A DNA stretch of 64,000 nucleotides from an uncultured Spirochaetota bacterium (lineage in GTDB: Bacteria; Spirochaetota; UBA4802; UBA5550), in assembly GCA_963827275.1 (NCBI GenBank), contig CAWHAA010000008.1, positions 448,001 to 512,000 on the forward strand. Direction: 5' to 3'. Made by a program: the position numbers and the translations under genes. Below, piece by piece: positions 1 to 52,947 of this stretch; the first letter of the stretch is position 1; each line of letters opens with the position of its first letter. The notes beneath the pieces are model-generated. The model saw only the letters and a list, made by a program, of their open reading frames with translations, did not search any database and was not told the origin of the DNA.

Positions 1-786
1 CCAGGCGGTGATCAGGACCTGCTGCCGCCTGAGCTGGGAACCGTAGAGGTCCCAGTAGGAGCAGAGTTCGAGCACTATGAAAAACCCGCACAGGACCTGG
101 AGACAATAATAAAGATATTCCTGCTCTGCGGGCCTTTTGATCGAAAAAAACAGGTACATGATGAAAAGGATCACCCCCAGCGCCATGATCATGAAGACCA
201 GCTCCACCACGAGAAACCGCGCTGCCATTCCGCTCCCGCTCCAGTCGTTGATGCCGGTCACCGCAAGTGTCCCCATGACGTCCCCGAACAGGAAATAGGA
301 GACCCGCACTGCGACGACATTCTCTTCTCCGGGCCGGATGAATCTTCCGCTTATCCGGTAATAGCGCGGATGGTTCCACATGGAATGGGCATGGGGCAGG
401 AACCCCCCCATGCCCCCGATCCTGACGCCGTTAAAGTAGGTCTCGTCGGCGTTGGCGATCCTTCCCAGTACCAGCCCCAGGTCTTCACCGGGCCGGACGC
501 CGTTCAGGCGGACTTTTTTTCTGAGCCAGAGAACGCCGCCGATTTTTTCCGACCTGCCGTACACGTAGGACATGAGGTTCGACGGAAGGGTGATGGCGTC
601 CCACCCGGAATCATTGAAACCGGCGGCGGCATACCGCGGGTCGTCGTCCGGTGATATTTTCCAGACGCCTTCCAGGGACACGCGCGTGCCGCCCCCGTCC
701 TCCCGGCCGGGCATGCCGCGGAAGGCCATGGAAATGACGAAAATGCAGCAGCCGATGACCAGATACAATAGGGTCCTGAGTATCAT
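1..786 (-). CDS. Membrane-anchored sensor regulator, N-terminal part (runs off window); paralog of 6788-8557
   Basis: Not in the ORF track. Manual translation from ATG 786 (GGAGG at 791-795) is open to base 1: MILRTLLYLVIGCC...RVSLEGVWK...LWLRKKV...DLGLVLGRIANADETYFNG...HSMWNHPRYY...YCLQVLC...YWDLYGS. This is colinear with the 589-aa protein. An AraC C-terminus is inferred, not seen. Confidence 0.85.
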   Translation of the reverse strand, partial: MILRTLLYLVIGCCIFVISMAFRGMPGREDGGGTRVSLEGVWKISPDDDPRYAAAGFNDSGWDAITLPSNLMSYVYGRSEKIGGVLWLRKKVRLNGVRPGEDLGLVLGRIANADETYFNGVRIGGMGGFLPHAHSMWNHPRYYRISGRFIRPGEENVVAVRVSYFLFGDVMGTLAVTGINDWSGSGMAARFLVVELVFMIMALGVILFIMYLFFSIKRPAEQEYLYYCLQVLCGFFIVLELCSYWDLYGSQLRRQQVLITAW

Positions 787-821: not shown

Positions 822-1811
822 TTATGCCTGGCCCGTATATTCGCCGAGCAGCCGCATCCCTTCGTCGAATGTTATTTCAGGCACGTAGTCAAAATCGTTG
901 CGGGCGGCGCTTATATCGAACCAGTGGGATGTCGACAGCTCGCGCGCGAGGAACCGCGTCACCAGCGGCTCCCCGTCGATGCGGAACAACCGGTACAGCG
1001 ATTCCAGCACCCAGCCCCCGGCATAGGCGATGCCGGCCGGGATGCGACGCCTGACCGGCGGGAGGCCGTACGCGCACAGCACGCGGTCCAGCACCTCCCC
1101 GATGGGCCGCGGGTCGCCATTAGATATGAAATAGGCCTTTCCCGCGAGGGGCGAACCGGGGGAGAGCCGGTCGGCGGCCTTCAGGTGGGCCTGCGCCGCA
1201 TTGTCGATATACACGATATCGATCCTGTTGTCGCCGGTCCCGACGATCCGCAACCTGCCCGCACGCGCCTTTTCCACGATGCGCGGGACAAGGTTGTTGT
1301 CCCCGGGCCCCCATATCAGGTGCGGCCGGAGCGCAACGGTGGACAGGACGCCGTCATTGGCGGAGAGGACCATGCGCTCGGCTATGGCCTTTGTCCGCGG
1401 GTAGCTGGCCTCGAAGCGGCTGGCGTAGGGGACGCTTTCATCGACGCCCTCCATGTCCCCGCCGTTAAAAACGACGCTGGGAGACGAGGTATACACGAGA
1501 CGCCGGACGCCCTCCAGCAGGCAGGCGTTAATGACGTTCCTGGTGCCCTCAACGTTGGCGCGGTAATAGTCGTCATAGGACCCCCAGGGTCCGGCCTTGG
1601 CGCCGACATGGAACACGGTGTCGCATCCCTCGACCGCCCGGATCACGTCATGGTCATTGCACAGGTCGCCCTGGACGTGGCGCACCCCCATCTCCTCCAG
1701 CGCGGGGTACCGGCCGCGCGAAAAACTCGTCACGCCGTCCCCGCGCCCGACAAGGTGGCGCACGATGGCGCCGCCCAGGAACCCTCCGCCTCCGGTGACA
1801 AGGGCCCTCAT
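822..1811 (-). CDS. oleD: OleD-type 2-alkyl-3-oxoalkanoate reductase (3-beta-HSD/extended SDR)
   Basis: TGGGGFLG, VYTSSPSVVF, YPRTK (YxxxK), LRPHLIWGPGD; ATGA overlap with the upstream oleBC. Confidence 0.85.
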   Translation of the reverse strand: MRALVTGGGGFLGGAIVRHLVGRGDGVTSFSRGRYPALEEMGVRHVQGDLCNDHDVIRAVEGCDTVFHVGAKAGPWGSYDDYYRANVEGTRNVINACLLEGVRRLVYTSSPSVVFNGGDMEGVDESVPYASRFEASYPRTKAIAERMVLSANDGVLSTVALRPHLIWGPGDNNLVPRIVEKARAGRLRIVGTGDNRIDIVYIDNAAQAHLKAADRLSPGSPLAGKAYFISNGDPRPIGEVLDRVLCAYGLPPVRRRIPAGIAYAGGWVLESLYRLFRIDGEPLVTRFLARELSTSHWFDISAARNDFDYVPEITFDEGMRLLGEYTGQA

Positions 1812-4444
1812 GACAGCCTCCGCGCGGCCCAGACGGCCAGTTTTTCCCGCAGGATTTTCGCGTTGTGCCTGATATCGACCGGGAATCGGTGATGGTAGAG
1901 CACGTGCGCGATAGGTTTCGTATGATCAAACTGGCGCGCCATTTCCAGGAGCTCGGCCGTGATCAGCTTTCTCTGGTGCCGTCCGCCCGGCGCGTTTTTT
2001 TCCAGCTCGATGCAGATGACCGGGACCGTGGCGCCTTTGATCCTGACCCCCACAAGCGCGCTGCGGTTCACGGCCGGATGGTTGTTGAAGATCGCCTCGC
2101 AGGGGAGCGTAAAGAACGTCCTCCCGGTGGTTTCAACCCGATGGCTCTTGCGCCCGCACATCCAGAGCCTGCCCTGTTCGTCCAGATATCCCACATCGCC
2201 CATGCGGTGCCATATGCCGCCGTCTTCCGGATCCCTGATCTTCGCAAGGGCGGTCTGCACAGGGCGGCGGTAGTATTCCCTGGTCACCACGGGCCCCTTG
2301 ACGGCGATTTCGCCAATCGTGCCGACCGGCTGCCTGAGTGAATCCGACCATGTGGTGACCGGTTCCTCGGAGATGGGAATGATGGCGACCGACATGTCCC
2401 TGACGGGATGGCCGACGCACACCCCACCTCCGCGTTCAGTGCGGCTCTTTGTCTCGCCGAGCAGGACGCTGCTTCCTATCACCGTTACCGGCAGGGCCTC
2501 GGTGGCCCCGTACGGGGTGAATATCTGCACGCCGGGCGCGAGCACTTTTGATAACCGGCTGATCGACGACATCCGCGCCGGCGCGCCCGCGGAAAAGACC
2601 CGCCGCAGGGTGGGCAGCTTGATACGCTTCTCCTCGCAATAGCGTCCGATTTTTTCCACCAGCGCCGGCGAGCAGAACATGTTGGTGCACTGGAAGTCGT
2701 TGATGGCCGTAATTAATTTTTTCGGATCGGCATCGGCGGGCCTGGTGGCATCCATGTCGGGCAGTATCGCCGGCACGCCGCACGCCGGGCCGAAAAGGGC
2801 AAAGGGCGGGAAGGTGGAAAGATCGATGTCATCGTCCTTCAGGTCGAGTATCTCTTTCAGGATGTCCAGCTGGGAAGAGAATATTCCGCTGGTATAGACG
2901 ACGCCCTTGGGGATGCCCGTGTTGCCGCTGGTAAAAGCGAGCATGACCATGTCGCCGGGGCGCGGCTTCTCGGTCATGATATAGTTCTCCGGCGATCCCA
3001 GCTCCCTGATGCGCCTGAGGGTGAACCCACCCCACAGGAATCGTCTCCCCGCGGTGACCTTGATCCTGACGGTGCGCCGCGCCCAGCCCAGGAGCACGCG
3101 TGCGAAATGGGCCTTCGGTATGCCGATGAACGCCTCCGGTTCGGCCTCTTCAATGCATTTCTTCAGGTTGCGGACCCCCATGCCCGGATCGACCAGGACC
3201 GGGATCGCACCGATCTTGAGTATCGCTGACAGGATGGCGAAGAAGTCAAGGCCGGGCGTAACCATCAGCACCGTGAGCATGCCCCTGGTAATTCCCGCCT
3301 TTTCAAGGCCGTGCGCGATGCGGTTGCTCTCCCGGTCGATTCCCGCGTAGGTCATGGTTTCATACCTGCCTTTTCCGTCGGATCCGATGCCGCGCATGTG
3401 CGCCACCACCAGGCTGTCAGGCTTGCGGGCCACGATCTGCATCAGGCGCTCCGCAAGGTCCATATATCCCGCCGTCTCGTTTTTCCGTTCCGCCGCGTGC
3501 ATGGCGGGAGGTTCGCAAAAGGGTATCCTGGTATCAATGAAGTTCTCGATGATGGGGATGATCTCCTCCCTCGCGTCTTCAAGGACGTAGTGGCCGGCGT
3601 CCTCGAAGCGGTGCACGCTGGCGCCGGGGAAATGCCGCACCCATTCGCCCAGCATCTTTTTGCAGAAGATGAAATCCTTCATCCCCCAGCAGAGGAGCAG
3701 CGGCTTGTCGCGGAGCAGCTTCAGCTTCGATTCCATGAGCAGGCCCATGTCGTACCCCGGGTCCCCCGGTTTCACGGGGATGTCCTGGATGAAGCGGTGC
3801 ACGGCGATCCGGTCTTTCCAGGAGCCGTAGGGAAAGAGCAGCCCGCGCGCCACGTCCTTCGGCATGCGGTTCCGCTTCATGCCGATGACAATGGCCCCGC
3901 GCGCGAACACGTTGAGTCCCCTGATAAACAAGTCGCTTCCCAGGGGGATGCGCGCAGAAAACAGGGCAAAGGGGAGCCGTTTTGTCACCGGCCAGATGAA
4001 TCCCGCCGTGTTCATCATCACCATCCCGGCGATCCGGTCCGGATTGAGCGACGCATAGGCGGTGCCGATGATGCCCCCCCAGTCATGCCCCACCAGGACG
4101 AAGCGCTTCAGCCCGAGGTGGTCGACGAGGGCCCCCAGGTCCTCCATCCGCCTGGTGGCGGTGTAGGGGTACCGGTCGTCACCCGGTTTTTCGCTCAGCC
4201 CCATCCCGATATGGTCAGGGACGATCACCCGGTATTTTTTCCTCAGGGCCAGGACCAGGTCTCGATAATAAAATGACCAGGTCGGATTGCCGTGCACCAT
4301 CACGACCGGAAAGCCTTCGCCTTCATCGAGATAGTGATACATTAAGCCGCCGCAATTGAAGAAATTGCTCCTGAATGGATAGAGGCCCGATGGGAAGCCC
4401 TCGGTGTATGTCTGCTCGTGCTGCGATACTGCTGATCTGTTCAT
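1808..4444 (-). CDS. oleBC: OleB-OleC fusion: beta-lactone decarboxylase (haloalkane dehalogenase fold) plus beta-lactone synthetase (ANL ligase)
   Basis: N-terminal HGNPTWSFYYR, GHDWGG, WGMKD, DAGHYVLED; C-terminal DPGMG, FTSGNTGIPKG, FPPFALF, YGATEALPV, HRMGDVG, FPVDIRHNAKI. Confidence 0.85.
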   Translation of the reverse strand: MNRSAVSQHEQTYTEGFPSGLYPFRSNFFNCGGLMYHYLDEGEGFPVVMVHGNPTWSFYYRDLVLALRKKYRVIVPDHIGMGLSEKPGDDRYPYTATRRMEDLGALVDHLGLKRFVLVGHDWGGIIGTAYASLNPDRIAGMVMMNTAGFIWPVTKRLPFALFSARIPLGSDLFIRGLNVFARGAIVIGMKRNRMPKDVARGLLFPYGSWKDRIAVHRFIQDIPVKPGDPGYDMGLLMESKLKLLRDKPLLLCWGMKDFIFCKKMLGEWVRHFPGASVHRFEDAGHYVLEDAREEIIPIIENFIDTRIPFCEPPAMHAAERKNETAGYMDLAERLMQIVARKPDSLVVAHMRGIGSDGKGRYETMTYAGIDRESNRIAHGLEKAGITRGMLTVLMVTPGLDFFAILSAILKIGAIPVLVDPGMGVRNLKKCIEEAEPEAFIGIPKAHFARVLLGWARRTVRIKVTAGRRFLWGGFTLRRIRELGSPENYIMTEKPRPGDMVMLAFTSGNTGIPKGVVYTSGIFSSQLDILKEILDLKDDDIDLSTFPPFALFGPACGVPAILPDMDATRPADADPKKLITAINDFQCTNMFCSPALVEKIGRYCEEKRIKLPTLRRVFSAGAPARMSSISRLSKVLAPGVQIFTPYGATEALPVTVIGSSVLLGETKSRTERGGGVCVGHPVRDMSVAIIPISEEPVTTWSDSLRQPVGTIGEIAVKGPVVTREYYRRPVQTALAKIRDPEDGGIWHRMGDVGYLDEQGRLWMCGRKSHRVETTGRTFFTLPCEAIFNNHPAVNRSALVGVRIKGATVPVICIELEKNAPGGRHQRKLITAELLEMARQFDHTKPIAHVLYHHRFPVDIRHNAKILREKLAVWAARRLS

Positions 4445-4484
4445 GTCATCCTCCCGTTAATTAATGTTGATGGAGTGCGGCATA

Positions 4485-5378
4485 TTACGCCACATAGGCG
4501 GCGCACGCGGATGAAAGCCCGGACCCCGCCGCCACGAACAGGACCTGGTCATACTTCTTGACAAGCCCTTCGGCCGCAATGGTATGGAATCCCAGGCTGA
4601 GGCACGATGTATGGGTATCGCCGAATTGCTCGTGGATTTCTACGGGCCGGGACTTCCCGTTCAGGCCCGAGGCCTTGTATATTTTGCCGGCCATCCCTTT
4701 CCCCTGCTGGGTCGTCACCAGGAATTTCACTCCCGAGGGATCGATGTTGGCGGACCGTATGTATTCCCTGGCGGTCTCCGCCGCCATATCGCCGAGCTGC
4801 TCAAGGTAATCGTCCTCCGTAATAAAAATCATGGACGACCTGCCGCTCGTCCCGTAGTGATCGGTGTCGGCATAGGCGGAGAAACCGCCTGACCCGTTGC
4901 CTGCCGTCCGGTAGATGACGTCGCGAAACCCCCTGCTGCCGTCCGGGTCATAGGAGAGGAGGACCGCCGCCCCCATGTGCCGGAACGGAAACGATCCGTC
5001 AGAATGCTTTGACGGGTGAACATCGCTGGAAAGTATCAGGACGTTCTTTGCCGTCCCGCAGCGCAGAGAGGCGTCGGCAACCTGCACCGCGTTGAGGAAT
5101 CCGCATGCGCCGTTGAGCAGGTCAAAGGAGAAGGTGTGCGTCCCTATGCTGCCGCTGCACGGGTCATTGTTGAGGCCCAGCCGTTTCTGCACGAGAGGGG
5201 CGATGGCCGGCTCCATGATGTTGTCGTCCCGATACACGCCGATATTGATCAGCAGGTCCACCTTTCCCGGCTCCACGCCCGCCATTTCGATGCAGCGCTC
5301 TCCTGCCGTGACTGACAGCTCTATTGAGCTGTCGACTGAATCCATGCATACCGCTGAGCCTGTTATGATTGTTCCCAT
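4485..5378 (-). CDS. KAS-III/OleA-fold protein with degenerate catalytic triad (LstB/NltB/PqsB-like partner subunit)
   Basis: Keeps GVYRDDNIMEPA (Glu56). Has DLLNGACGF (Ala at the nucleophile register), LVTTQ in place of IIPHQ, and FGDTHTS in place of FGNTST. Confidence 0.8.
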   Translation of the reverse strand: MGTIITGSAVCMDSVDSSIELSVTAGERCIEMAGVEPGKVDLLINIGVYRDDNIMEPAIAPLVQKRLGLNNDPCSGSIGTHTFSFDLLNGACGFLNAVQVADASLRCGTAKNVLILSSDVHPSKHSDGSFPFRHMGAAVLLSYDPDGSRGFRDVIYRTAGNGSGGFSAYADTDHYGTSGRSSMIFITEDDYLEQLGDMAAETAREYIRSANIDPSGVKFLVTTQQGKGMAGKIYKASGLNGKSRPVEIHEQFGDTHTSCLSLGFHTIAAEGLVKKYDQVLFVAAGSGLSSACAAYVA

Positions 5379-5390
5379 ACCTTTTTCTCC

Positions 5391-6437
5391 TTATTGTATT
5401 TGTATTTCCTGGATCTGTATACCGCCGATGCGCGCGAGCACAAACCCGACCACGATGCCCGACGCAAGGGCGATGAAGAGCACCCTCGATCCTTTTTTTA
5501 TTTTTCCCTGTTTGATATAATCATTGAGCACGACGAAATGCGACGTGGTGGACGTATTGCCGAATTTATCCAGGCTTATGCAGATTTCCGGTGAAACCTC
5601 AAAGTGCTGTTGGCACAGGTCCAGGGCCGAATGGATGGCCCTGCTGGAAGTCTGGTGCGGAATTATGAAATCGATATCCCGGGGCGAAATGCCGTGTTTT
5701 TTCATGATGTATCCCATGAGGTATGGCAGCCGCTGGATCACCTCCTTGTGGATTGCCATGGCGTCGGTATACATGGCCACCCCGGAATTTTCGCTGCTTG
5801 GCATACCGAAGCAGAGCTCGGCAAATTCCGACATGGTCATGAACTCTACCATCTCGATTCCTTCCGTATCCTCCGTCGCCCGGTCAAGTATATACGCGGC
5901 GCCTGAATCCCCCACGGTGAGGGAGGCAAACTGGCGGTCGACGGGCTCCCGTATCTCCTTGACGGCCGTCTCCGTAATGGGTGTAATACATTCCCCGCTT
6001 ACCACCATCCCGGTCCGGACCTGCCCGGACCGGATCATGTTGTCCAGAATAAAAAGCCCCGTGAGCATGCCGGCGCAGGCATTGGTTATGTCAAAGTTAA
6101 GGGCCCCGGGCCTGAGTCCCAGGTCGCTCTTGAGGCCTTTGCTCAGGGCAGGCTCCATGTAGAAGGAGAGGCCGTTTTTAAACCGCGTAATCGATGAACA
6201 GATGATAACGTCAAGGTCCCCGGCGCTATACCGGGATGAGTCCAGGCATTTGCGCGCTGCGGCAAGGGCGATCGAATACGAGTCCTCGTTTTCGTCCCTC
6301 CACCGCCGGTACTGGATGCCGGTCAGCTTTTCCAGGTCGAATACCGGCCTGTTCTTCATCCTCGCCACCAATTCCTGGGTTGAGACCGTCTGGCTGGGAA
6401 GATACACGCCCAGGCTTTCAAATCTTGTCTGCATCAT
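5391..6437 (-). CDS. KAS-III/OleA-family thiolase, catalytic subunit (LstA/NltA-like)
   Basis: MEPALS, FDITNACAGM (Cys), VVSGE, SLTVGDSGAA, IPHQTS (His), FGNTST (Asn); start moved to ATG 6437 behind a GGGGG RBS-like run. Confidence 0.85.
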   Translation of the reverse strand: MMQTRFESLGVYLPSQTVSTQELVARMKNRPVFDLEKLTGIQYRRWRDENEDSYSIALAAARKCLDSSRYSAGDLDVIICSSITRFKNGLSFYMEPALSKGLKSDLGLRPGALNFDITNACAGMLTGLFILDNMIRSGQVRTGMVVSGECITPITETAVKEIREPVDRQFASLTVGDSGAAYILDRATEDTEGIEMVEFMTMSEFAELCFGMPSSENSGVAMYTDAMAIHKEVIQRLPYLMGYIMKKHGISPRDIDFIIPHQTSSRAIHSALDLCQQHFEVSPEICISLDKFGNTSTTSHFVVLNDYIKQGKIKKGSRVLFIALASGIVVGFVLARIGGIQIQEIQIQ

Positions 6438-6787: not shown

Positions 6788-8557
6788 TCAGCTTTCTTCA
6801 ATTGCGGTTTTCGTTGAAAAGGTGACGGGCGCCTGGTCCCGCGGCGTGCTGTTTTTTCTGTATTCTTCCGGGGTCATCTTCATTATTTTTCTGAACACCC
6901 GGTTGAATGTCCTCAGGCTGTCAAAACCCGCTTCAAAGGCTATGGTGATAATGGTCGCATCTGATTCAAGAAGCTTCCTGGTGGCGGCATTGATCCTGAG
7001 TTCGTTGATGTAATCGCCGATGCGCATGTTCGCGTATATTTTAAAAAAGCGGCCAAGGGTGTCGGGATGTATGTCAACCATGGCGGCAAGTCCCTCGCGG
7101 GAGATGTCCTCGGTGAAATTTTCCCTGATGTACCTGAGCACCTGCTCAATCCTCTCGTCCGCGCGATCGATGATCGCGGCGGGAGCGGTGCTGCGCCTCG
7201 CGTCGCATGACTGTTCCAGACGCTCTTTCAGCATGGTATTTTGCGCGACAAAGCTCTCGACGCTGGAAGCAAGGATCCTCATCTCTCCCATGACGCGGTA
7301 ATAACTGGAGACCAGGCTCATGGTTATGGCGAACAGCAGCGGCAGCGAACCGAAGTGGGCAATCATGTAACCGGGGATTATCCATCCATAGTCAATCCGG
7401 GCGAAGCGCATGAAGCTGAGCAGCCCGTCGTGGATACATCCTATAAGGAATATGATATCGAATAGCGTGAAATAAAGCGGGCACCTTCGTTTTTTTACCA
7501 GCATGACGAGATTGATGGTAAGATTGTACAGCCCGAGGCTCAGAGTGGCGGCGATGAAGAGGATGCCGATTGTCCTGAGATTGTTTTCGTTAATAAAAAA
7601 CAGGGCAAGCGCTGCCGATGCCATAAAAAAGTAGAAACCGAAATACCTCTCGACTTTCTCACGCTTGAGATGGTAGAGCCGGTGCAGAAACTTCTGGTGC
7701 AGGACGGTAATGCCCCCCCACGCCAGTCCCAGCACCAGATATCTGGTGAGCAGGCTGCCGTACATGTCCCAATAATTACACCCGTCCAGGATAATCAAAA
7801 ACATACAGCAGAGCTGGAGACAGTAGAAGAGGGAATCCCGGGAGTTGTGGCCTTTTACCATGAAATAGAGGAATGCCAGGAAACAGGGGATCCCGGCCGC
7901 GATGAACAAATAGGGAAGTATGATCAAGAAAAAATTACTCAGGACCCTGCTCTGCTCCCACTCGGTCATGTTCGTGAGGCCCAGCGTGCCCTGGACCTCC
8001 CCGCTCAGATTATATGACAGCCGCACCGCAATGACATTGGCGCCTCCGAAGCGAATGACGGACCTGGGCACCTGGTAATGGCGGGGATGGTTCCACATGG
8101 AGTGTTCCGCCGGCGGGAAGTCTCCCAGCCCGCCGATCTTTTCGCCGTTAAAGAAGACTTCATCCGCGTGGGCTATCCGCCCGAGGATCAGGCCGATGTC
8201 TTCCCGGGGAACGGCGCTGTCGATAAAAACGGTTTTTCTCAGCCACAGAATGCCGGCATTTCCGCCGCCGCTCCTGTCTATTGTCGGCATCAGGTTGCCG
8301 GGAAGATCCACCGCTGTCCATGTTGAATCGTCATAATCAGGAGCGGCATATGCCTGCACATCTTTATTGCGCATCTTCCATGGGCCTGCCAGGCTGACTC
8401 GTGTTGCTACGGATGTTACCTGTACCTGGTCCCGGGATTCTGAAAGAGGATACGCAGGATTCGACGCGAAGTGAAAGAAGATACACAGCGCGAGAATAGC
8501 GACAGCCTGGTAACGTCGATCATGTAAGTTACGACTGAATACTTTAAATTTTCCCAT
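6788..8557 (-). CDS. One-component membrane regulator: extracytoplasmic beta-galactosidase-type jelly-roll domain, about 7 TM helices, AraC HTH
   Basis: N-terminal hydrophobic segment, SLAGPWK...DYDDSTW...LWLRK...ADEVFFNGEKIG, multiple TMs, and C-terminal YINELRI...IAFEAGFDSLRTFNRVFRKIMKMTPEEYR. Confidence 0.88.
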   Translation of the reverse strand: MGKFKVFSRNLHDRRYQAVAILALCIFFHFASNPAYPLSESRDQVQVTSVATRVSLAGPWKMRNKDVQAYAAPDYDDSTWTAVDLPGNLMPTIDRSGGGNAGILWLRKTVFIDSAVPREDIGLILGRIAHADEVFFNGEKIGGLGDFPPAEHSMWNHPRHYQVPRSVIRFGGANVIAVRLSYNLSGEVQGTLGLTNMTEWEQSRVLSNFFLIILPYLFIAAGIPCFLAFLYFMVKGHNSRDSLFYCLQLCCMFLIILDGCNYWDMYGSLLTRYLVLGLAWGGITVLHQKFLHRLYHLKREKVERYFGFYFFMASAALALFFINENNLRTIGILFIAATLSLGLYNLTINLVMLVKKRRCPLYFTLFDIIFLIGCIHDGLLSFMRFARIDYGWIIPGYMIAHFGSLPLLFAITMSLVSSYYRVMGEMRILASSVESFVAQNTMLKERLEQSCDARRSTAPAAIIDRADERIEQVLRYIRENFTEDISREGLAAMVDIHPDTLGRFFKIYANMRIGDYINELRINAATRKLLESDATIITIAFEAGFDSLRTFNRVFRKIMKMTPEEYRKNSTPRDQAPVTFSTKTAIEES

Positions 8558-10442: not shown

Positions 10443-11096
10443 ATGCTTCTCAAAGGCTGTCTTCATGTCCACACCACCTGTTCCGACGGGAAACTGTCGC
10501 CGCAGGAGATGGCTGACGCGTACGAGTCACGGGGGTATGATTTCCTGGCGTTCACGGACCATGACTACCTTTTGAAGCCGAACTACCGTGAGATGTACGA
10601 CCGGGTTAAAACCGGCATGATCATTTTTCACGGCATGGAGATTACGGTGTATGTCAGGGGCTACCTTCACGTGGGGCAAATCGAGGGCGACGGCGAAACG
10701 CTGCGCATCTTCAACCATATAGGCGAATATAACATGTCGCCGGAGCAGGTGCTTGAGCGGCTGGCGGTGCTGGAAACCATGTATCCCCTCGATGCCGTTG
10801 AGATAACGACAAAGGGATTCCGCGATGCCGCGTTCGAGTCGCTGGACCTGCGGTACCCGAAAATCGCGTCCGATGATTCGCATACGCTGGTGGGCGTCGG
10901 GCGGGCATGGGTGGAATTGGACGCCGCGCGCGAGAAAGATTCAATACTGAGGGCGATAAAAGAAGGGAAAATTCTGGAACTGCTATGTTTGATCATACAC
11001 GGCAGCGCAATACTACAAGATATCATGAAGGAGGTTCAGCGTGATCCTTTATTTTTTCAGCACCAACAGGAGGATTGGCAATGGGTAAGAGAATAG
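10443..11096 (+). CDS. PHP-family metal-dependent phosphoesterase (C-terminus possibly frameshifted)
   Basis: HVHTTCSDG, FTDHD, SDDSH; the tail overlaps the next gene and its RBS. Confidence 0.8.
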   Translation: MLLKGCLHVHTTCSDGKLSPQEMADAYESRGYDFLAFTDHDYLLKPNYREMYDRVKTGMIIFHGMEITVYVRGYLHVGQIEGDGETLRIFNHIGEYNMSPEQVLERLAVLETMYPLDAVEITTKGFRDAAFESLDLRYPKIASDDSHTLVGVGRAWVELDAAREKDSILRAIKEGKILELLCLIIHGSAILQDIMKEVQRDPLFFQHQQEDWQWVRE

Positions 11097-12226
11097 CGGT
11101 CTGCGCCGTCGCGCAGATCAAAAACGAACCGGCATACAACCATATGCGCTTCCAGAACATGCTGCTCGAGTGCTTCGAGCCGATCATGGAAGAGACCAAG
11201 GTCACCTTTGACATGGAGAAGGGGATCAGGAACATCATCACCTGCTCGGATGACGTGTTTGACGCGCGGACCATATCCAACAACGGCATCACCGACGTGG
11301 TGGGCGCCCACTTCCGCGGGGAAGAGAAGATGGCCCAGGAGAGCATCAACGGCCTCGGCTACGCCATGGCCTGCATCCTGAGCGGCCATGACGACGTGAT
11401 CCTGTTCATGGGCCACTGCAAGGAATCGCAGGGAGAGAGCAGGAGAATGGCCACCAACCTCGCGTACGACCCGTTCTACTGCAGGCCCCTCGGCATGGAT
11501 TTCCAGAACGCGGACGCGCTGCAGGCCAGGGCATACATGGAAAAATCAGGCGTCACCGACAGTCACCTTGCGAAGATAGTGGCGCGTTCAAGGAAAAACG
11601 CGAAGAAGAACCCCTACGCGCGGGAAAACAAGCTTGTCGATGAAAAAGAAGTCATGAATTCGCCGATGTACCTTGATCCGCTCCGGGAACTCCACGTGTA
11701 CCCGGTCACCGACTGGGCGTACGGGATGCTGCTCTGCTGCGAGGAGCGCGCCAGGGAGTTCACGAAAAACCCGGTCTGGATCACCGGGTACGGGAGCTGC
11801 ATGGACCGGTATTTCCTCGGCGACCGGGACCTTTCGTCGAACTTCTCCCTCAGGAACGCGGCCGAGCGCGCGTATGCAAAGGCGGGGATCAAGGACCCGA
11901 GAAAAGAGGTGCAGCTGTTTGAATTAAGCGACCACGCAGCGCACCAGCTCCCGATGTGGGCCGAAGGCGTCGGCATAGCGGAGGAAGGCAGGGGCGGCAC
12001 ATGGATCGATGACGGCGGCATGGACACGTTCAACGTGAACCTGTCGGGCGGCCAGCTCAATGGCAACCCGCTCCTCCTCGGGGGCGCGGCCAGGGCCATT
12101 GAATGCTACTACCAGCTCTCCGGCCAGGCGGGCGAGCGCCAGGTCAAGGGCGTCAGGAAAGCTGTCGCCCAGGCGGCAACCGGCGGGGCAGGCCAGCACC
12201 AGGCCGTCATAGTTATGGAAGCGTAG
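11081..12226 (+). CDS. Thiolase-fold protein, Ltp4-like, no catalytic Cys
   Basis: TCSDDVFDARTIS, EEKMAQES, NLSGGQLNGNP; GGAGG RBS before ATG 11081. Confidence 0.8.
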   Translation: MGKRIAVCAVAQIKNEPAYNHMRFQNMLLECFEPIMEETKVTFDMEKGIRNIITCSDDVFDARTISNNGITDVVGAHFRGEEKMAQESINGLGYAMACILSGHDDVILFMGHCKESQGESRRMATNLAYDPFYCRPLGMDFQNADALQARAYMEKSGVTDSHLAKIVARSRKNAKKNPYARENKLVDEKEVMNSPMYLDPLRELHVYPVTDWAYGMLLCCEERAREFTKNPVWITGYGSCMDRYFLGDRDLSSNFSLRNAAERAYAKAGIKDPRKEVQLFELSDHAAHQLPMWAEGVGIAEEGRGGTWIDDGGMDTFNVNLSGGQLNGNPLLLGGAARAIECYYQLSGQAGERQVKGVRKAVAQAATGGAGQHQAVIVMEA

Positions 12227-12238
12227 GGAGGTTTGACA

Positions 12239-13438
12239 ATGGCACACAGGAAGAAAAACAGGAATGTCGGCATAATAGGCATCGGGCAGACGAAGCACTC
12301 CAGCCACCGCGAGGACGTGAACCAGCCTGAAATGATACACGAGGCGGTCAGCCTGGCGTTGAAAGACGCGAACCTGACCATGAAGGACATCGACTGCATC
12401 GTCCATGGCAACATGGAGCTGTTTGAAATGATCCATCAGCCGGACATGTGGCACGTGCTGGGGACCGGCGGGTACGGCAGGGAGTGCATCCGGATCACCA
12501 CCGGCGGCACGGTCGGGGCGACCATCTCCTGCGCGTCGGACAACCTGGTGGCGTCGGGCATGTACGATATCGTCATGGCCATCGGCTTCGAGAAGCAGCA
12601 GGAGGGGCACACCACCGGCGGCATCACCAACATGGCGGACCCGCTCTGGTTCCGGAAAATCCAGGCGGGGGCGCTCACCGGCTCCGCGGCGTACGACGTC
12701 GAGCGTGAATTCGGGCTCGAGCGGGCCAACAAGGCGTCGCTGACCTACCGCATCATCATGGACAAGCACGCCGGGCTCAATCCCAACGCGCACCGCTCCT
12801 TCGGCCTGGACTTCAGCCAGATCGACGACCTCATCAAGAGCTCTCCGAAGCTCGTCGGCGACCTGAAGCTCATCGAGATGTGCTCCCAGTCGGACGGCGC
12901 CTGCTGCGTCATCTACGCCTGCGAGAAAAAGGCGAAGCAGCTTTCAAAGAACCCGGTCTGGATACGGGACCATATCACCAAGCACAAGGAAGAGACCTTC
13001 ACCATCTTCGGATACGACAAGAAATACCCCTGGATGATGACGCATAAGGTCGCGGCGGCGGAGCTCTTCAGGCGGAACGAAATCAAGAACCCGCTGGAAT
13101 ATTTCGACGTGTTCGAGATGTACGACCCGGCGACCTGGTGGGCGATGGACTGGATCAGGGACTTCTTCGCCCTGAAAGGCGACGAGCACCTGAAGCTCAT
13201 AGAGGACAGGGAGATCATGATCGGCGGGAAGATGCCTATCAACCCGTCAGGCGGCGTCATCGGCTCGAACCCGATCGGCGCGACCGCGCTGATACGCGTG
13301 GCCGAGGCGGCCCTGCAGGTGCGCGGCAACGCGGGCGGCCACCAGATCCCCACCCCGGTCAACCACGCGCTCGCCTCGGGCTTCGGCGGCACGATGTGGA
13401 CGGTGCTCACGATGCTCGAGAAGGAACTTAACTGGTAG
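12239..13438 (+). CDS. Thiolase-fold protein, Ltp3-like, no catalytic Cys
   Basis: IIGIGQTKH, RITTGGTVG, GFEKQQE, EMYDP, NPSGGVIGSNPIGA. Confidence 0.82.
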   Translation: MAHRKKNRNVGIIGIGQTKHSSHREDVNQPEMIHEAVSLALKDANLTMKDIDCIVHGNMELFEMIHQPDMWHVLGTGGYGRECIRITTGGTVGATISCASDNLVASGMYDIVMAIGFEKQQEGHTTGGITNMADPLWFRKIQAGALTGSAAYDVEREFGLERANKASLTYRIIMDKHAGLNPNAHRSFGLDFSQIDDLIKSSPKLVGDLKLIEMCSQSDGACCVIYACEKKAKQLSKNPVWIRDHITKHKEETFTIFGYDKKYPWMMTHKVAAAELFRRNEIKNPLEYFDVFEMYDPATWWAMDWIRDFFALKGDEHLKLIEDREIMIGGKMPINPSGGVIGSNPIGATALIRVAEAALQVRGNAGGHQIPTPVNHALASGFGGTMWTVLTMLEKELNW

Positions 13439-21246: not shown

Positions 21247-22392
21247 ATGGACAGAGCGGCGATAATCGGCGTCGGCATGACAAGCATTGAAAAGAGAAAG
21301 GTCCGGGAGACCTTCGCGGACATGGCCTGGCAGGCGGTGAACAGGGCCCTGGACGACGCGGGGATGACCATCGACGATATTGACAACGTGGTGACCACCT
21401 CCAGCGACTTCTGGGACGGCAGGACGATCTCCTGCATGGCCGTCGGCGACGCCAGCGGCGCGGCGCACAAGAACGTCTCCTGCGTCGAGGGGGACGGCAC
21501 CTATGGGGCGTTTTACGGCATGACCAGGAGCCTTTCCGGATCGTACCGGACCACCCTGGTGACCGGGCATTCGAAAGGCTCCGAGAGCATTTCGAGCCTC
21601 ATCACGAATTCGGCCTTTGACCCGATATACGAGCGGGGGCTGGGCATGGACATGGTCACCGCGTGCGCGATGCAGGCGCGCTCCTACATGCACCGGACGA
21701 AAACGACGCCGGAGCAGATGGCGATGGTGTCGGTGAAGAACCACGGCAACGCGCTGAAGAACCCGCTGGCGCAGCTTCCGATGAAGATCACGGTGGATGA
21801 CGTGCTGAAATCAGAGATGGTGGCGGACCCGCTCCGCAAACTCGACTGCTCCCCGGTTTCCGACGGGTGCGCGGCGGTCATCATCGCCCACGAATCGGCG
21901 GCGACGGGCTTCAGGCAGAAACCGGTCTGGATCAGGGGCGTCTCGTTCTGCGCGGACAGCTTTTTCTTCGGTGACCGGGACCTGTCCCGCGCCCGGTCGC
22001 TTACCGCGGCGGCGAAGAAGGCCTATGCGATGGCGGGCATCAGGGACCCGAAAAAAGAGATCGATGTTGCGGAAGTGTACGACGCCTTCACCTATCAGGA
22101 ACTGATGTGGCTCGAGGAGATGGGTCTCGCTGATGATGCGACGGCGGGGAAGCTCCTCGAAAAAGGGGAATTTAACATGGACGGCAGGCTCCCGGTGAAC
22201 GCCTCCGGCGGGCGCCTCTCGGGGCACCCTGTCATAGCCGCCGGTCTCTACGGCATGGCCGCGGTCGTGAAGCAGATCAGGGGCGACGCCGGCGGCTACC
22301 AGGTGAAAAAGGCGAAGACGGGTCTTGTCCACGGCGTGAACGGCCTCGGGGGCCAGTCCCACTGCGTGTGGATTCTTGACAAGGACAGGTAG
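21247..22392 (+). CDS. Thiolase-fold protein, Ltp4-like (second copy)
   Basis: TSSDFWDGRTIS, SCVEGDGTYG, SPVSDGCAA, EVYDAF, NASGGRLSGHP. Confidence 0.85.
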   Translation: MDRAAIIGVGMTSIEKRKVRETFADMAWQAVNRALDDAGMTIDDIDNVVTTSSDFWDGRTISCMAVGDASGAAHKNVSCVEGDGTYGAFYGMTRSLSGSYRTTLVTGHSKGSESISSLITNSAFDPIYERGLGMDMVTACAMQARSYMHRTKTTPEQMAMVSVKNHGNALKNPLAQLPMKITVDDVLKSEMVADPLRKLDCSPVSDGCAAVIIAHESAATGFRQKPVWIRGVSFCADSFFFGDRDLSRARSLTAAAKKAYAMAGIRDPKKEIDVAEVYDAFTYQELMWLEEMGLADDATAGKLLEKGEFNMDGRLPVNASGGRLSGHPVIAAGLYGMAAVVKQIRGDAGGYQVKKAKTGLVHGVNGLGGQSHCVWILDKDR

Positions 22393-22403
22393 GAGGAAGA
22401 ACC

Positions 22404-23561
22404 ATGGCGAAACGAGTCGCGATTGTAGGGACCGGGCAGACCTTCCACAAGAGCCACCGCCCGGACGTGAACGGCCAGGAACTCATCAACGAGGCGGTCG
22501 TGCGGGCGCTCAACGACGCGGATTTGAAAATGAAGGACATCGATGCGATAGTTATCGGCAACATGGACCACTTCGAGGGGATCAATTACGTCGACTGCTG
22601 GAGCGTTGACGGCTCCGGCGGGACCATGAAGCCGATCATAAAGCTGACCACCGGCGGCACCACCGGCTGCACCGTCGCCATCGGCGGATACCACCTGGTG
22701 GGCTCCGGCATGTTCGAGAGGGTGCTGGTCATCGGCTGGGAGAAGAACTCTGAATCCGATACCACCGGCGCCATCACCACGGCCTTTGACCCGATATGGG
22801 ACCGGCTGGTGTTCGCCGGGGCGATTTCGGGGCTGGCGGCGGAGGCGCAGGCCTACATGGCCCGCTACGGCGCCTCCGACCGTGACGGCGCGCGCGTCAG
22901 CGTCCGGGACCGAAAGCACGCGATGAACAATCCCCATGCTCAGCTCAGGAAGGAAGTCACCATCGATGAGGTGCTCGCGTCCCCGATGCTGGCGGACCCG
23001 ATACACTTGCTGGACGTGTGCCCCCGCACCGACGGCGCCTGCGCGGTCATCATGGCGAGCGAGGACGTCGCCGAAACGATATGCCCGAAGCCGGACTGGA
23101 TCTGGGCCACGGCGGCGCGCCATTCATACAGCTACCTGGGCGACGCGGATTACGGCCGCCTGACGAGCATGCGCGAAGGCTCGCAGGAGCTCTGGAAGAA
23201 GGCGGGGATCAGCGAGCCCCGCAAGGAGCTTGATGTCATCGAAATGTACCAGCCGTACTCCTTCGGCGGGCTGATCTGGATCGAGGACATGGGGATCGTC
23301 GGCCCCGGGGAGGCGCCCCGATACATATGGGACGGGAACACCGACATGGGCGGCGAGCTCCCCATCAACCCGTCGGGCGGCGTCATTGCGACCAACCCGA
23401 TAGGGGCGACCGGCCTCATCCGCTGCGCGGAAGCGGCGATGCAGGTGATGGGCAGGGCCGGGGGACGGCAGGTGCCGGACGTGAATTTCGCCTTCAGCAG
23501 CGGCTTCGGCGGTTGCTGGTGGACCGATATGATCCTGCACGGGAAGAAGAAGCCTAAGTGA
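22404..23561 (+). CDS. Thiolase-fold protein, Ltp3-like (second copy)
   Basis: AIVGTGQT, DHFEG, KLTTGGTTG, GWEKNSES, EMYQPYS, NPSGGVIATNPIGA. Confidence 0.85.
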   Translation: MAKRVAIVGTGQTFHKSHRPDVNGQELINEAVVRALNDADLKMKDIDAIVIGNMDHFEGINYVDCWSVDGSGGTMKPIIKLTTGGTTGCTVAIGGYHLVGSGMFERVLVIGWEKNSESDTTGAITTAFDPIWDRLVFAGAISGLAAEAQAYMARYGASDRDGARVSVRDRKHAMNNPHAQLRKEVTIDEVLASPMLADPIHLLDVCPRTDGACAVIMASEDVAETICPKPDWIWATAARHSYSYLGDADYGRLTSMREGSQELWKKAGISEPRKELDVIEMYQPYSFGGLIWIEDMGIVGPGEAPRYIWDGNTDMGGELPINPSGGVIATNPIGATGLIRCAEAAMQVMGRAGGRQVPDVNFAFSSGFGGCWWTDMILHGKKKPK

Positions 23562-49371: not shown

Positions 49372-52300
49372 ATGAAATGGCTGGTTAAAATTTCCATCAA
49401 CAGGCCAAAGACGGTCATCGCCTGTATCGTCGCCGCTACGCTGTTTTTTGCCATCATGCTGGGTGTTAATTTCTCGGTCAATGTCGACCCGATGAAGGCC
49501 TTTTCCAGAAAGATGGACGTGATCAAGTATTACCACCTGACCCTGAAAAAATTCTCCATGAAGGACACGATCCTGATCGGCGTCGAGAACGAGAAGGACG
49601 GCATCTTTAACGTAAAGACGCTCCGCTACGTTGAGCAGGTGACCAGGCGGTTCAAGGCACTCAAGGTCGATAAGACGTACAAGAGCGTCTTCACCGGCGA
49701 GAAGGAAACGGTGGAGGTCCCGTCGCGGATCTCGACCGACCAGATCATGAGCATAATAAACGCCGATGACGTCATGGTGAACAAGGCGACCAACACGATC
49801 GTGATGGGAAACCTGACCAGCAGGGCGCGGGAAAAAGCCGGGCTCATCGACCAGGACCCCGAGGAGATGAAAAAGCTCCCGGAACGGGACGAGGATCTGG
49901 AGAAGCTCCTCCCCTATCTCAAGAAGGAGCTGGATGGGAACGACCTGCTGAAAGGCACGCTCTTTGCCGTCGACGGCAAGGCCTGCGCCATCATGGTCCC
50001 CGTTGAGAAGAGGATCGACAACAAGCTGGAGATCATACGCCGCGAGATGTCCTACATGGTGGACGCGTCAAAGCTGAGGGACCGCTTCAGCGGGAGGGAC
50101 TTTTATTTCCAGCATGACATATACAAAAAAGAGGTCAACGGCACCACGGTCGACGATGAGTTCATTGAGGACACGGTGGCGGCAAACAAAAAGAAGATCC
50201 GCTCATACATGCTCGGTCTTCTCTCTCCGTTCAGCGATCATTACAAGGATTTCTATGCATCACTGAAAAAGAACGAGGTGGACGAGGAATACCTGGACGC
50301 CATCTACCGGATGATTGAAAATGACGCGGCGTACGAGAAGCCCGATGTCGAGCTCACCTACCTGGACCTGATTGACGACCTGTACAAGTTTGTCATCGAG
50401 AACCTCGATCCCTACAGCAAAAACAACCTTGAATCGAAACTCTACAACGTCTCCAGCATATATGACGTCGGGCATATTTACAAGATATTCATCGACATCA
50501 CGGAGAAGGACAAACCGGCCGGGCTGAACATCTACATCGCCGGCATGCCGGTCGCCGAAGCCCTGCTGATGGGTCTTGTCACGAACGATCTCTCCATCTT
50601 CATGGCCCTGGCCACCTTCGTCATACTGCTGATACTGTTCCTCACCATCAGGACCCCCACCGGGATCTATCTCCCCCTGACTGCGGTGGTGATCAGCATC
50701 GTATGGCTTATGGGCGGCATGCTCATGGCGGGCATAGATTTTTCTTCGGGGACCATGGCAATGCCCTGTATCCTGATCGCGGTCGGCAGCTCTTATGTCA
50801 TCCATTATCTGGTACGGTATTACGAGAAGGTGGCAGGAAAAACCGCGGCGGATGTGAAGACGGTCCTCCTCGAAACAACGGACAGCATTGACACGGCGAT
50901 CTTTCTGTCAGCGATAACGACCATGGCCGCTTTTATCTCCGACGTGTTCATTGACGTCGTTGATATCCAGCGGCTGGGCTACCTTGTTACGCTCGGCATC
51001 GCGATAAACCTGTTCCTTACCTTTACCTATATCCCGGCCGTGCTCGCGCTCCAGCCCCCCCCGAAAGGGACCCGCGAGTCATTTTTTGAACGGATCATCA
51101 TGAGCGCGGTGCTGAAGGGCGGGGCCAACACCGCGCGGCACCCGCGCACGGTGTTCTGGGGGGCCCTTGCGCTGACCGGTGTCTTCCTGGTCGGGGTATT
51201 TTTTCTCAAGACCGAGAGCAGCATCTCCTTCATGTTCCTCGAGAAGAACCCGCTCCGGCAGGCGGACAAGTTCATCAACAAGGAGCTCACCGGCACCGGC
51301 CAGATGTGCATCGTCTTCCGGATGAGGGACCGTGTGAACCTTGAAAGCCGGGCGGCGCAAAAGGACCTTGCCGCACGGATAGACGCGTTTATCGCTTCGT
51401 ACCGGACTCTTGCGAATATCCACCCGGACCTGAACGTCTCGCCGGAGATAACCCGCTATTTCATAGATGACCTGGGGAATTTCAGGCAGAACACGCAGAA
51501 AAACCAGGGGGCCATCGAGGACCGGGTGGCGGTATTCACCGACATCATGAACGAATATTTCGAGAGCGAGCAGGCCGGCAAGGACGCCGCGAGCAGCATC
51601 GGCGCGTCCGCATCGAGCGATGACATCAGCGACATGGCCGATGACACGATGTACGCGAGCGGCAGGCACCTGACCATGACCCCGCAGGAAGCAGGCATAG
51701 AGAACATAATCGGCAGGGTCAAGACGATCGATACCGCCCGGGCGCGCGACGCGGCGCGCCAGTTTATCAGGGCCGCCCGCACCTATAAATACGACGCGGC
51801 GGGGAAGGTCTTTCTCGGGGACTTTTTCCTGCTGTCGGATTTTTTCCATACTGACATCACCCAGCCGGTCACGCTCCGCAAGATTGACGAGCTCGGCAAC
51901 GCGCTGAAGGCCCTGAAGGAGCCGCATGCCGTCATTGACGGCGTAACGGTGCGTCCGGTGGGCAACATCATGAGCATTACCGACACCCTGAAGGTCATCT
52001 ACAAGGTCTTCTACCACGAGGACAGCAATGAATTCAGGAAGATCCCGAGCGTCAGGGAGGACGGGATCCAGGACAGGTCGCTCACCGACCGCGGCATCAT
52101 CGGGGTCTGTTTGAACCAGTTCGCCGCGTCGCGGGAGGACGTGTACAAGTACCTGGTGACAGACGACATGAAGCTTATGCAGTACGTGGTGTTCATGCGG
52201 AGCGACAAGGCCGATTTTCTCCGCGAGTTCGAGAAAACCTTCAATGAAATGTTCAAAAAAATATTCCCGGATGATGATCCCTATGTGGAGAAGATCATCG

Positions 52301-52947
52301 TGTCGGGCATGCCGGCCATAAACCTGAAGATGAACGAGGCCATCCTGATCAACCAGATCCAGTCGATCATCGTGACGGTCATCATCGTGTTCCTGGCATG
52401 CACCTTTATCTTCCGCTCGTTTATCGGCGGCCTGTTCGTGTCCGTGCCCATCTCCTTCACGCTCATCATTACCCTGGGCATCATGGGATACCTCGGGATC
52501 CCGATCAACTACAGCACGATACTCAACGCATCGATCGCAGTGGGGGCGGGCATCGATTACTGTATCCACTTCATTGAGCGGTTCAAGTACGAGCATATTG
52601 TTATGAAGCTTGATTTTACCGATGCGTACCGGAGGACCCTGAAAACCACCGGGCTGGCCATCGTCACCTCTACCCTGACCGTCGGCCTCGGGTTTGCCGT
52701 GCTCGGCTTCTCCTCGTTCAAGATTTTAAAAATATCAGGCCTGCTGGTGACCGCTTCCATGATTCTGAGCGGGACCTTCTCGCTCACCGTGCTCCCGGCG
52801 ATGATCATCTGGCTTAAGCCGGGGTTCCTGAAAGAAGTGAAGCCGTGGGCGGTTGAAGAAAAGCTGACGGTGGTCTTTAAGGGCCTTCTGGACCGTGCGA
52901 AGAGCGTGAATTTAGAGCAGTTCAACATGTTCAGGAAGAAGTGCTGA
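49372..52947 (+). CDS. MMPL/RND-family transporter with large extracytoplasmic insertions
   Basis: Two 1+5 TM halves; IAVGSSYVIH and IAVGAGIDYCIH; LTVLPA. Confidence 0.85.
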   Translation: MKWLVKISINRPKTVIACIVAATLFFAIMLGVNFSVNVDPMKAFSRKMDVIKYYHLTLKKFSMKDTILIGVENEKDGIFNVKTLRYVEQVTRRFKALKVDKTYKSVFTGEKETVEVPSRISTDQIMSIINADDVMVNKATNTIVMGNLTSRAREKAGLIDQDPEEMKKLPERDEDLEKLLPYLKKELDGNDLLKGTLFAVDGKACAIMVPVEKRIDNKLEIIRREMSYMVDASKLRDRFSGRDFYFQHDIYKKEVNGTTVDDEFIEDTVAANKKKIRSYMLGLLSPFSDHYKDFYASLKKNEVDEEYLDAIYRMIENDAAYEKPDVELTYLDLIDDLYKFVIENLDPYSKNNLESKLYNVSSIYDVGHIYKIFIDITEKDKPAGLNIYIAGMPVAEALLMGLVTNDLSIFMALATFVILLILFLTIRTPTGIYLPLTAVVISIVWLMGGMLMAGIDFSSGTMAMPCILIAVGSSYVIHYLVRYYEKVAGKTAADVKTVLLETTDSIDTAIFLSAITTMAAFISDVFIDVVDIQRLGYLVTLGIAINLFLTFTYIPAVLALQPPPKGTRESFFERIIMSAVLKGGANTARHPRTVFWGALALTGVFLVGVFFLKTESSISFMFLEKNPLRQADKFINKELTGTGQMCIVFRMRDRVNLESRAAQKDLAARIDAFIASYRTLANIHPDLNVSPEITRYFIDDLGNFRQNTQKNQGAIEDRVAVFTDIMNEYFESEQAGKDAASSIGASASSDDISDMADDTMYASGRHLTMTPQEAGIENIIGRVKTIDTARARDAARQFIRAARTYKYDAAGKVFLGDFFLLSDFFHTDITQPVTLRKIDELGNALKALKEPHAVIDGVTVRPVGNIMSITDTLKVIYKVFYHEDSNEFRKIPSVREDGIQDRSLTDRGIIGVCLNQFAASREDVYKYLVTDDMKLMQYVVFMRSDKADFLREFEKTFNEMFKKIFPDDDPYVEKIIVSGMPAINLKMNEAILINQIQSIIVTVIIVFLACTFIFRSFIGGLFVSVPISFTLIITLGIMGYLGIPINYSTILNASIAVGAGIDYCIHFIERFKYEHIVMKLDFTDAYRRTLKTTGLAIVTSTLTVGLGFAVLGFSSFKILKISGLLVTASMILSGTFSLTVLPAMIIWLKPGFLKEVKPWAVEEKLTVVFKGLLDRAKSVNLEQFNMFRKKC

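Follow-up and report, generated by a model that had tools for sequence, protein, structure and literature searches.

Two described designs bear closely on the locus reported here. Clusters of the oleABCD type, known from Xanthomonas, Shewanella and, with an oleBC fusion, Micrococcales, open with the KAS-III gene of a single homodimeric OleA followed by oleB, oleC and oleD. The nltABCD and lstABCDEF clusters start instead from a pair of KAS-III subunits, A and B, with the catalytic triad in A and an essential Glu in B, and according to PMC7064751 these β-lactone clusters are without oleB. The same paper lists three gene contexts, oleABCD, the oleBC fusion and oleACD, none of which includes an A/B pair. 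Both NltA and LstA are reported to need their B partners (10.1101/856955, PMC12141560), the conserved Glu being E60 in LstB and E57 in NltB, where it is described as essential (10.1101/856955). The names LstA and LstB have also been used for unrelated genes (PMC13192835).

The window, a stretch of 64,000 nucleotides from the genome of an uncultured spirochaete (G000), holds a cluster that, judged from its sequence, is a chimera in which an LstAB/NltAB-type pair replaces OleA in front of ordinary ole-lineage OleB, OleC and OleD. It shares with oleABCD the lineages and order of oleB, oleC and oleD, the OleB pentad and the leading position of a KAS-III gene, but the starter is an A/B pair with ~22-35% identity to OleA-type genes and the single homodimeric OleA is absent from the cluster. 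With nltABCD and lstABCDEF it shares the A/B pair, the triad in A and the Glu in B, window A being 40-49% and window B 36-44% identical to the subunits of actinobacterial A-B-C-D loci; it differs from them in its fused oleB, in OleC and OleD of another clade and in having no NRPS. The hybrid design proposed in an earlier note on this DNA is upheld by the thiolase, OleC, OleB and OleD trees. The cluster is a real and recurrent recombination of known parts that is apparently undescribed: no description of an A/B pair together with oleB was found in the full-text literature searched, and the earlier note's remark that it knew of no such cluster stands within that coverage.

Organisation of the locus and its surroundings

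The four open reading frames lie on one strand at the place and with the tight spacing first described (Table 1). A and B are separated by 12 bp and B and oleBC by 40 bp, oleBC and oleD overlap by 4 bp, and GGAG/GGAGG-type ribosome sites precede B, oleBC and oleD. Pfam places ACP_syn_III and ACP_syn_III_C in A and also in B, Abhydrolase_1 (46-158) and AMP-binding (339-725) in the 878-aa frame and 3Beta_HSD in the 329-aa protein. Measured against the nearest relative, L001, dN/dS is 0.076 for A, 0.113 for B, 0.093 for OleB, 0.095 for OleC and 0.104 for D, values that indicate purifying selection on all five parts. As the fusion is one recurring open frame and dN/dS lies at 0.08-0.11, the locus is neither a product of chance nor decaying. 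No second oleC and no second A/B pair was found in G000, no OleA-clade gene was found there with the queries used, and no NRPS or tailoring gene adjoins the cluster. Promoter-like sites numbered 4 where 4.3 were expected, and terminator-like ones 12 where 7.3 (sd 3.0) were expected; neither count was put to use. No RNA run was listed as carrying the sequence, and three sequencing runs contained 5-10% of the words and assembled to scattered short contigs only, with no bearing on expression or habitat.

Table 1 Position of the cluster genes, the domains of the fusion and the flanking regulators in the window
Feature	Position	Strand	Size and basis
KAS-III subunit A (LstA/NltA type)	5391..6437	-	348 aa; Pfam, tree
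KAS-III subunit B (LstB/NltB type)	4485..5378	-	297 aa; alignment, tree, AF2 model
oleB-oleC fusion ORF	1808..4444	-	878 aa; single open frame
OleB domain of fusion (HLD-III alpha/beta hydrolase, predicted beta-lactone decarboxylase)	3500..4444	-	pentad
OleC domain of fusion (predicted beta-lactone synthetase)	1808..3484	-	PRK09274; P-loop TSGNTG
OleD-type reductase	822..1811	-	329 aa; TGGGGF, S..YPRTK
AraC regulator upstream of cluster	6788..8557	-	HTH_18 at 490-568
Second AraC paralogue, 5' part; runs past window edge	1..786	-	35 bp after oleD

The N-terminal part of the upstream AraC regulator is long and reads as a sensor with membrane helices. The second paralogue is 40% identical to it, and the whole-gene counterpart of this paralogue in L297 carries HTH_18. 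Both AraC flanks recur in L001, and kinase-AraC fusions are present in L002. The upstream gene is a possible candidate regulator of the cluster; the recurrence of the flanks in L001 and L002 notwithstanding, regulation is unproven because G000 has several AraC paralogues.

Further into the window, positions 11075-32122 hold a large acyl-CoA catabolic region that resembles steroid or fatty-acid degradation. It includes two more tandem thiolase-like gene pairs (11075-13438 and 21247-23561) together with SCP2, OB-fold proteins, a β-keto acid cleavage enzyme, a CoA transferase and acyl-CoA dehydrogenases. A 1191-aa MMPL-family protein is encoded at 49372-52947, 43 kb from the cluster.

The KAS-III pair and its relatives

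The catalytic triad is intact in A (C121, H261 and N294), which also keeps E95. The triad columns of B are replaced by A91, T223 and D254, the Cys of its NGACG motif standing one place off register relative to the catalytic column, and across the alignment the Cys-His-Asn triad is present in 43/43 A rows and 0/19 B rows. In B, E56 is invariant in all 36 aligned homologues, drawn from the 120 matches listed, and by manual count the invariant Glu is residue 57 of the Nocardia homologue P0094, which matches the numbering of the essential Glu of NltB. This column holds Glu in every B (19/19) and OleA (24/24) row, whereas 35 of 43 A rows have it, the rest being 4 Asp and 4 Lys; the residue is thus fixed in B and relaxed in A, a pattern that would follow if the base came from B; among Nocardia/Streptomyces-type (A-B-C-D) A subunits it is kept in 15 of 16. 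The retention of E95 means that an A homodimer is chemically possible, although the Nocardia/Streptomyces-type A subunits that keep this Glu still depend on B. A might on this view work as OleA does, with B as an accessory to folding or specificity or as a dispensable protein. The complete triad of A and the Glu-Cys-His-Asn set kept in 10/10 A subunits of the syntroph order agree with such an arrangement. It is rendered quite improbable by a Glu that is invariant in B yet Lys or Asp in 8/43 A subunits, by the dN/dS of 0.11 of B, by the existence of natural A-B fusions and by the requirement of NltA and LstA, too, for B.

The two window subunits are 22% identical, and LstA and LstB 23% (PMC12141560). 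Of 456 loci 80 were kept, and in 79 of these an A gene immediately precedes B, the exception falling at a contig edge. All 27 longer matches are natural A-then-B fusions, which lend indirect support to an obligate heterodimer. Such fusions are probably already known, since a review mentions natural chimeras of this sort and credits them to the LstAB paper. The AF2 model of B (pLDDT 89) displays a KAS-III fold, and a fold search with B returned the same fold (TM ~0.8, 15-20% identity) at a level at which subfamilies are not told apart. PqsBC is likewise a KAS-III-fold heterodimer with one inactive subunit, but PqsC is a weak match for A (E 1.5e-8), the pathway partners differ and no chain named PqsB occurs among the 37 PDB matches of B. 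NocG and PpyS share the Glu and Cys-His-Asn chemistry (PMC9486936) but are stand-alone non-decarboxylative ketosynthases, encoded by single genes with other partners.

A tree of 40 rows gives one branch each to A (13 rows, SH-aLRT 97), B (13, 99), OleA (8, 100) and FabH (4, 100), and the window A and B sit among the Nocardia/Streptomyces subunits. The same grouping appears in a larger 88-row thiolase tree without FabH; both trees were quick and without bootstraps, and the LstA/B, NltA/B and OleA types in them were taken from gene context and from stand-ins of the genera concerned. A search pattern for OleA, EPxx[AS]x(14,18)DxxNACL, has been published (PMC7158056); it matches 21/24 OleA rows and 0/43 A rows, window A among the latter, which may explain why the combination has gone undescribed. 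The pair is accordingly classed, on residues and trees, as subunits of LstAB/NltAB type that are neither OleA nor FabH. The type given to the pair in the earlier note is borne out by the loss of the triad from B, by the Glu that B retains and by the grouping with Nocardia/Streptomyces; the phylogeny proposed there as a check did not place the two thiolases with ordinary FabH, which forms its own clade.

A role of the pair as a FabH-type fatty-acid primer, beside the ole genes by chance, was also considered. No protein of G000 reaches the FabH cut-off, the one that comes nearest to the fabH model is A, and the best PDB sequence matches of the pair are FabH. However, the pair scores 131 (A) and 64 bits against a cut-off of 292 (TIGR00747), and in addition to their separate clade the FabH rows carry Pro-Ser/Asn without Glu in 4/4 cases. 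FabH above cut-off is found in 0/17 genomes of the genus, those without the pair included, so the pair does not fill the FabH role. This role is rejected on score, separate clade and a genus that is FabH-less regardless of the pair, and a chance neighbourhood of this kind is highly improbable.

Several other arrangements of A/B and KAS-III genes were observed. Bare A/B pairs, many of them in Smithella, occur in L003, L004, L005, L007, L010, L012, L019, L026 and L113-L115, and some of the nearest have unrelated neighbours. Lys replaces Glu in four bare-pair A subunits, and G014 carries four A/B pairs; the product of a bare pair might be a long-chain ketone. A-B-oleD without oleC or oleB is present in the proteobacterial loci L013 (4257-10889) and L016 (4294-10909), upstream of which, in both, lie genes for a Condensation-domain protein and an MMPL exporter, and A-B-D occurs also in L015, L018, L020, L024 and L039. 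Esters of mycolate-like 2-alkyl-3-hydroxy acids may be produced, and exported, by these clusters. NRPS-type proteins, several of them named Mycobacterium sp., end in a fused A-B KAS-III pair placed after adenylation and carrier domains (P0242-P0244, P0246-P0249, P0251-P0253, P0259, P0265 and P0266). In L006 (1593-8503) genes for aconitase X subunits, for an SDR and for an oxidoreductase of the old-yellow-enzyme type come after A-B, and in L110-L112 (G013, G012 and G002, of the same genus as the host) A-B-C-D is followed by an alpha/beta hydrolase only ~25% like OleB. Two more KAS-III genes, at C5:591698-592693 and C5:639179-640210, stand alone in G000 itself; they encode Glu-Pro and Cys-His-Asn and adjoin sensor genes and an amidase. 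The same genome has two ketosynthase-rich regions, C4:81895-123825 and C11:6262-25753, that resemble type II PKS or FAS clusters.

OleB, OleC and OleD and the spread of the combination

The OleB domain retains the full pentad (N53, D121, W122, D257 and H285), the Asn-Asp-Trp-Asp-His set defined for HLD-III proteins in PMC10503415, and the alignment thereby confirms the intact-looking OleB motifs of the earlier note. The pentad is present in 35/35 OleB rows (9/9 A/B-linked and 26/26 OleA-linked) and in 11/11 loci of the syntroph order, and the best PDB match of the domain is the HLD-III protein 8ckp. Among NCBIfam models the fusion protein passes PRK09274 (710 bits, cut-off 478) and stays below cut-off on the Shewanella (665/850) and Xanthomonas (631/900) olefin β-lactone synthetase models; the best model for D is OleD, at 458 bits against a cut-off of 580. 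The window OleC is 41-54% identical to OleCs encoded by separate genes in single-OleA clusters, the best exceeding 50%, and 35-42% identical to those of actinobacterial A-B-C-D clusters, the corresponding values for OleD being 44-64% and 32-37%. In a 68-row tree the window OleC falls inside a clade of 37 OleA-linked and 10 A/B+oleB rows (SH-aLRT 97), apart from all 20 A/B rows without oleB. OleD likewise lies within a group of 24 rows, 19 of them OleA-linked and 5 A/B+oleB (SH-aLRT 95). By identity and tree position, OleB, OleC and OleD are thus placed as descendants of single-OleA olefin-cluster lineages and not of Lst/Nlt ones.

The oleBC fusion recurs, with 83 fused proteins among the 120 matches listed, 32 of which, the window included, lie at 58-100% identity. 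In the P-loop TSGNTG of the OleC domain the Asn, Asn508, is shared by 31/32 members of its clade, vs Ser in 34/37 single OleCs. Actinobacterial oleBC fusions (31-37% identity) form a separate long-branch clade, so that the window fusion probably arose independently of them; the earlier note had called OleBC fusions best known in Actinobacteria, and the trees set the fusion seen here apart from those. One non-actinobacterial oleBC fusion has been reported before (PMC7064751).

The end product might be a β-lactone or hydroxy acid of which OleB removes only part, as one stereoisomer, for editing or for self-protection. Both characterised A/B pairs start β-lactone pathways, OleB reportedly acts on cis-lactones only, lipstatin being trans, and A-B-C-D loci without oleB exist in the same genus (L110-L112). 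Moreover, most of oleB has been lost in L029, a locus of the same OleC clade as the window with an oleB truncated to 114 aa. Such an outcome is nevertheless unlikely given that OleB, OleC and OleD are all of olefin-cluster lineages, that an OleB with intact pentad and a dN/dS of 0.09 is fused to OleC, and that neither an NRPS nor a tailoring gene stands beside the cluster.

The combination of A/B with oleB is also not unique, since the synteny survey found A/B with an intact oleB at 19 loci. These lie in spirochaete MAGs, in a single order of syntrophs (that of G282), in Desulfobacula, in a bin assigned to an archaeon and in contigs from metagenomes. The count leaves out L256 and L264, which belong to unpublished genomes, and takes L154 together with L235; L029 and L344 (contig edge) stand outside the 19, as do hints of further A/B+fusion loci. 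The exact gene order of the window, A-B-oleBC-oleD, recurs in L001, L002 and L017, and most A/B+oleB loci have oleB and oleC as separate genes. These include L023 (Desulfobacula), L038 (the archaeal bin, possibly misbinned), L235, L156 and L160, the last with A-B running convergently to oleBCD. They also include 10 of the 11 other loci from the order of G282, the eleventh ending at a contig end. G282 carries both an A/B-oleBC-oleD cluster (L017) and a single-OleA cluster (L244) whose oleD looks truncated.

In a 201-genome sample of the syntroph order 17 genomes have oleC, of which 12 are A/B-type, 4 single-OleA only and 1 uncalled. Three of the 17 genomes of the host genus carry the cluster and 3/17 carry A-B-C-D without oleB. 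In metagenomes the pair is present at 3 of 75 loci, picked by OleBC likeness in a partial scan, and it was found at 0/6 loci sampled from the 178 positive genomes of the order of G283 (3 single OleA, 3 uncalled). A/B+oleB is thus a minority form. On the OleC tree the A/B+oleB label requires 4 changes, and 5 with more rows, and a single clade of A/B+oleB OleCs (25 of 68 rows) is rejected by an AU test (p-AU 7e-59) that was run after the tree had been inspected. The pairing of A/B with ole genes seems, from these trees, to have arisen several times, repeated recruitment being the simplest reading and its direction inferred.

Predicted pathway and meaning

An A/B heterodimer probably takes the place of OleA in a pathway that ends in a long-chain, head-to-head cis-olefin. 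By analogy with NltAB, LstAB and OleA (PMC8180931 for the mechanism of OleA), A and B would form a heterodimer with a single active site, in which an acyl group would be loaded on C121 of A and E56 of B would act as the base in the site of A, deprotonating the alpha-carbon. Attack on a second acyl-CoA would give a 2-alkyl-3-oxo acid, which OleD would reduce to the hydroxy acid; the OleC domain would then use ATP to close the β-lactone, which the fused OleB domain would turn into the alkene by decarboxylation. The acyl-CoA pool of the host would set the chain lengths. No PfaA-family gene above cut-off is present in G000 (genome 92% complete), making a Pfa-derived C31:9 polyene product unlikely; with no second oleC or pair in that genome either, ordinary acyl-CoAs are the likely substrates. 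Against an olefin-forming A/B pair stands the finding that its closest relatives are often bare pairs without C, D or OleB in the locus, and the pair can thus serve other ends. The unusual P-loop Asn of OleC, the scores of OleC and OleD below the cut-offs of the characterised Xanthomonas/Shewanella models and the truncated oleB of L029 also weigh against this reading.

The earlier note had further deduced from the heterodimer that two different acyl-CoAs are joined to an asymmetric olefin. This is not borne out, as NltAB joins identical acyl-CoAs, condensing two myristoyl-CoAs in vitro to the same ketone as OleA, though the chains of natural nocardiolactone are unequal (both 10.1101/856955). 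Mixed iso, anteiso and straight olefins are already formed by single-OleA Micrococcales (PMC7158056), and NocG, a single gene, is strictly asymmetric with its choice of C6+C8 (PMC9486936), so asymmetry needs no heterodimer. An asymmetric product of the window cluster is therefore possible and not implied. A bolder and rather unlikely reading is that anaerobic spirochaetes, syntrophs and sulfate reducers repeatedly swapped OleA for an A/B heterodimer with one active site because B, left with no catalytic duty but its Glu, reshapes one acyl channel and fixes two different donors. If this were true, an olefin of defined asymmetry would result, made by a class of olefin synthase not yet described and invisible to surveys by the OleA pattern.

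The chemistry itself is already known, and the cluster breaks the rule of product prediction by which an A/B pair means a β-lactone and a single OleA with OleB an olefin. Since the OleA pattern misses such genes, counts of olefin capacity among lineages of anaerobic wastewater and sediment are probably too low. Those who engineer hydrocarbons or β-lactones gain further starter enzymes and an OleBC fusion of separate origin, and because nature has placed either OleA or A/B before the same OleBCD, the effect of a heterodimer on substrate choice could be tested directly.
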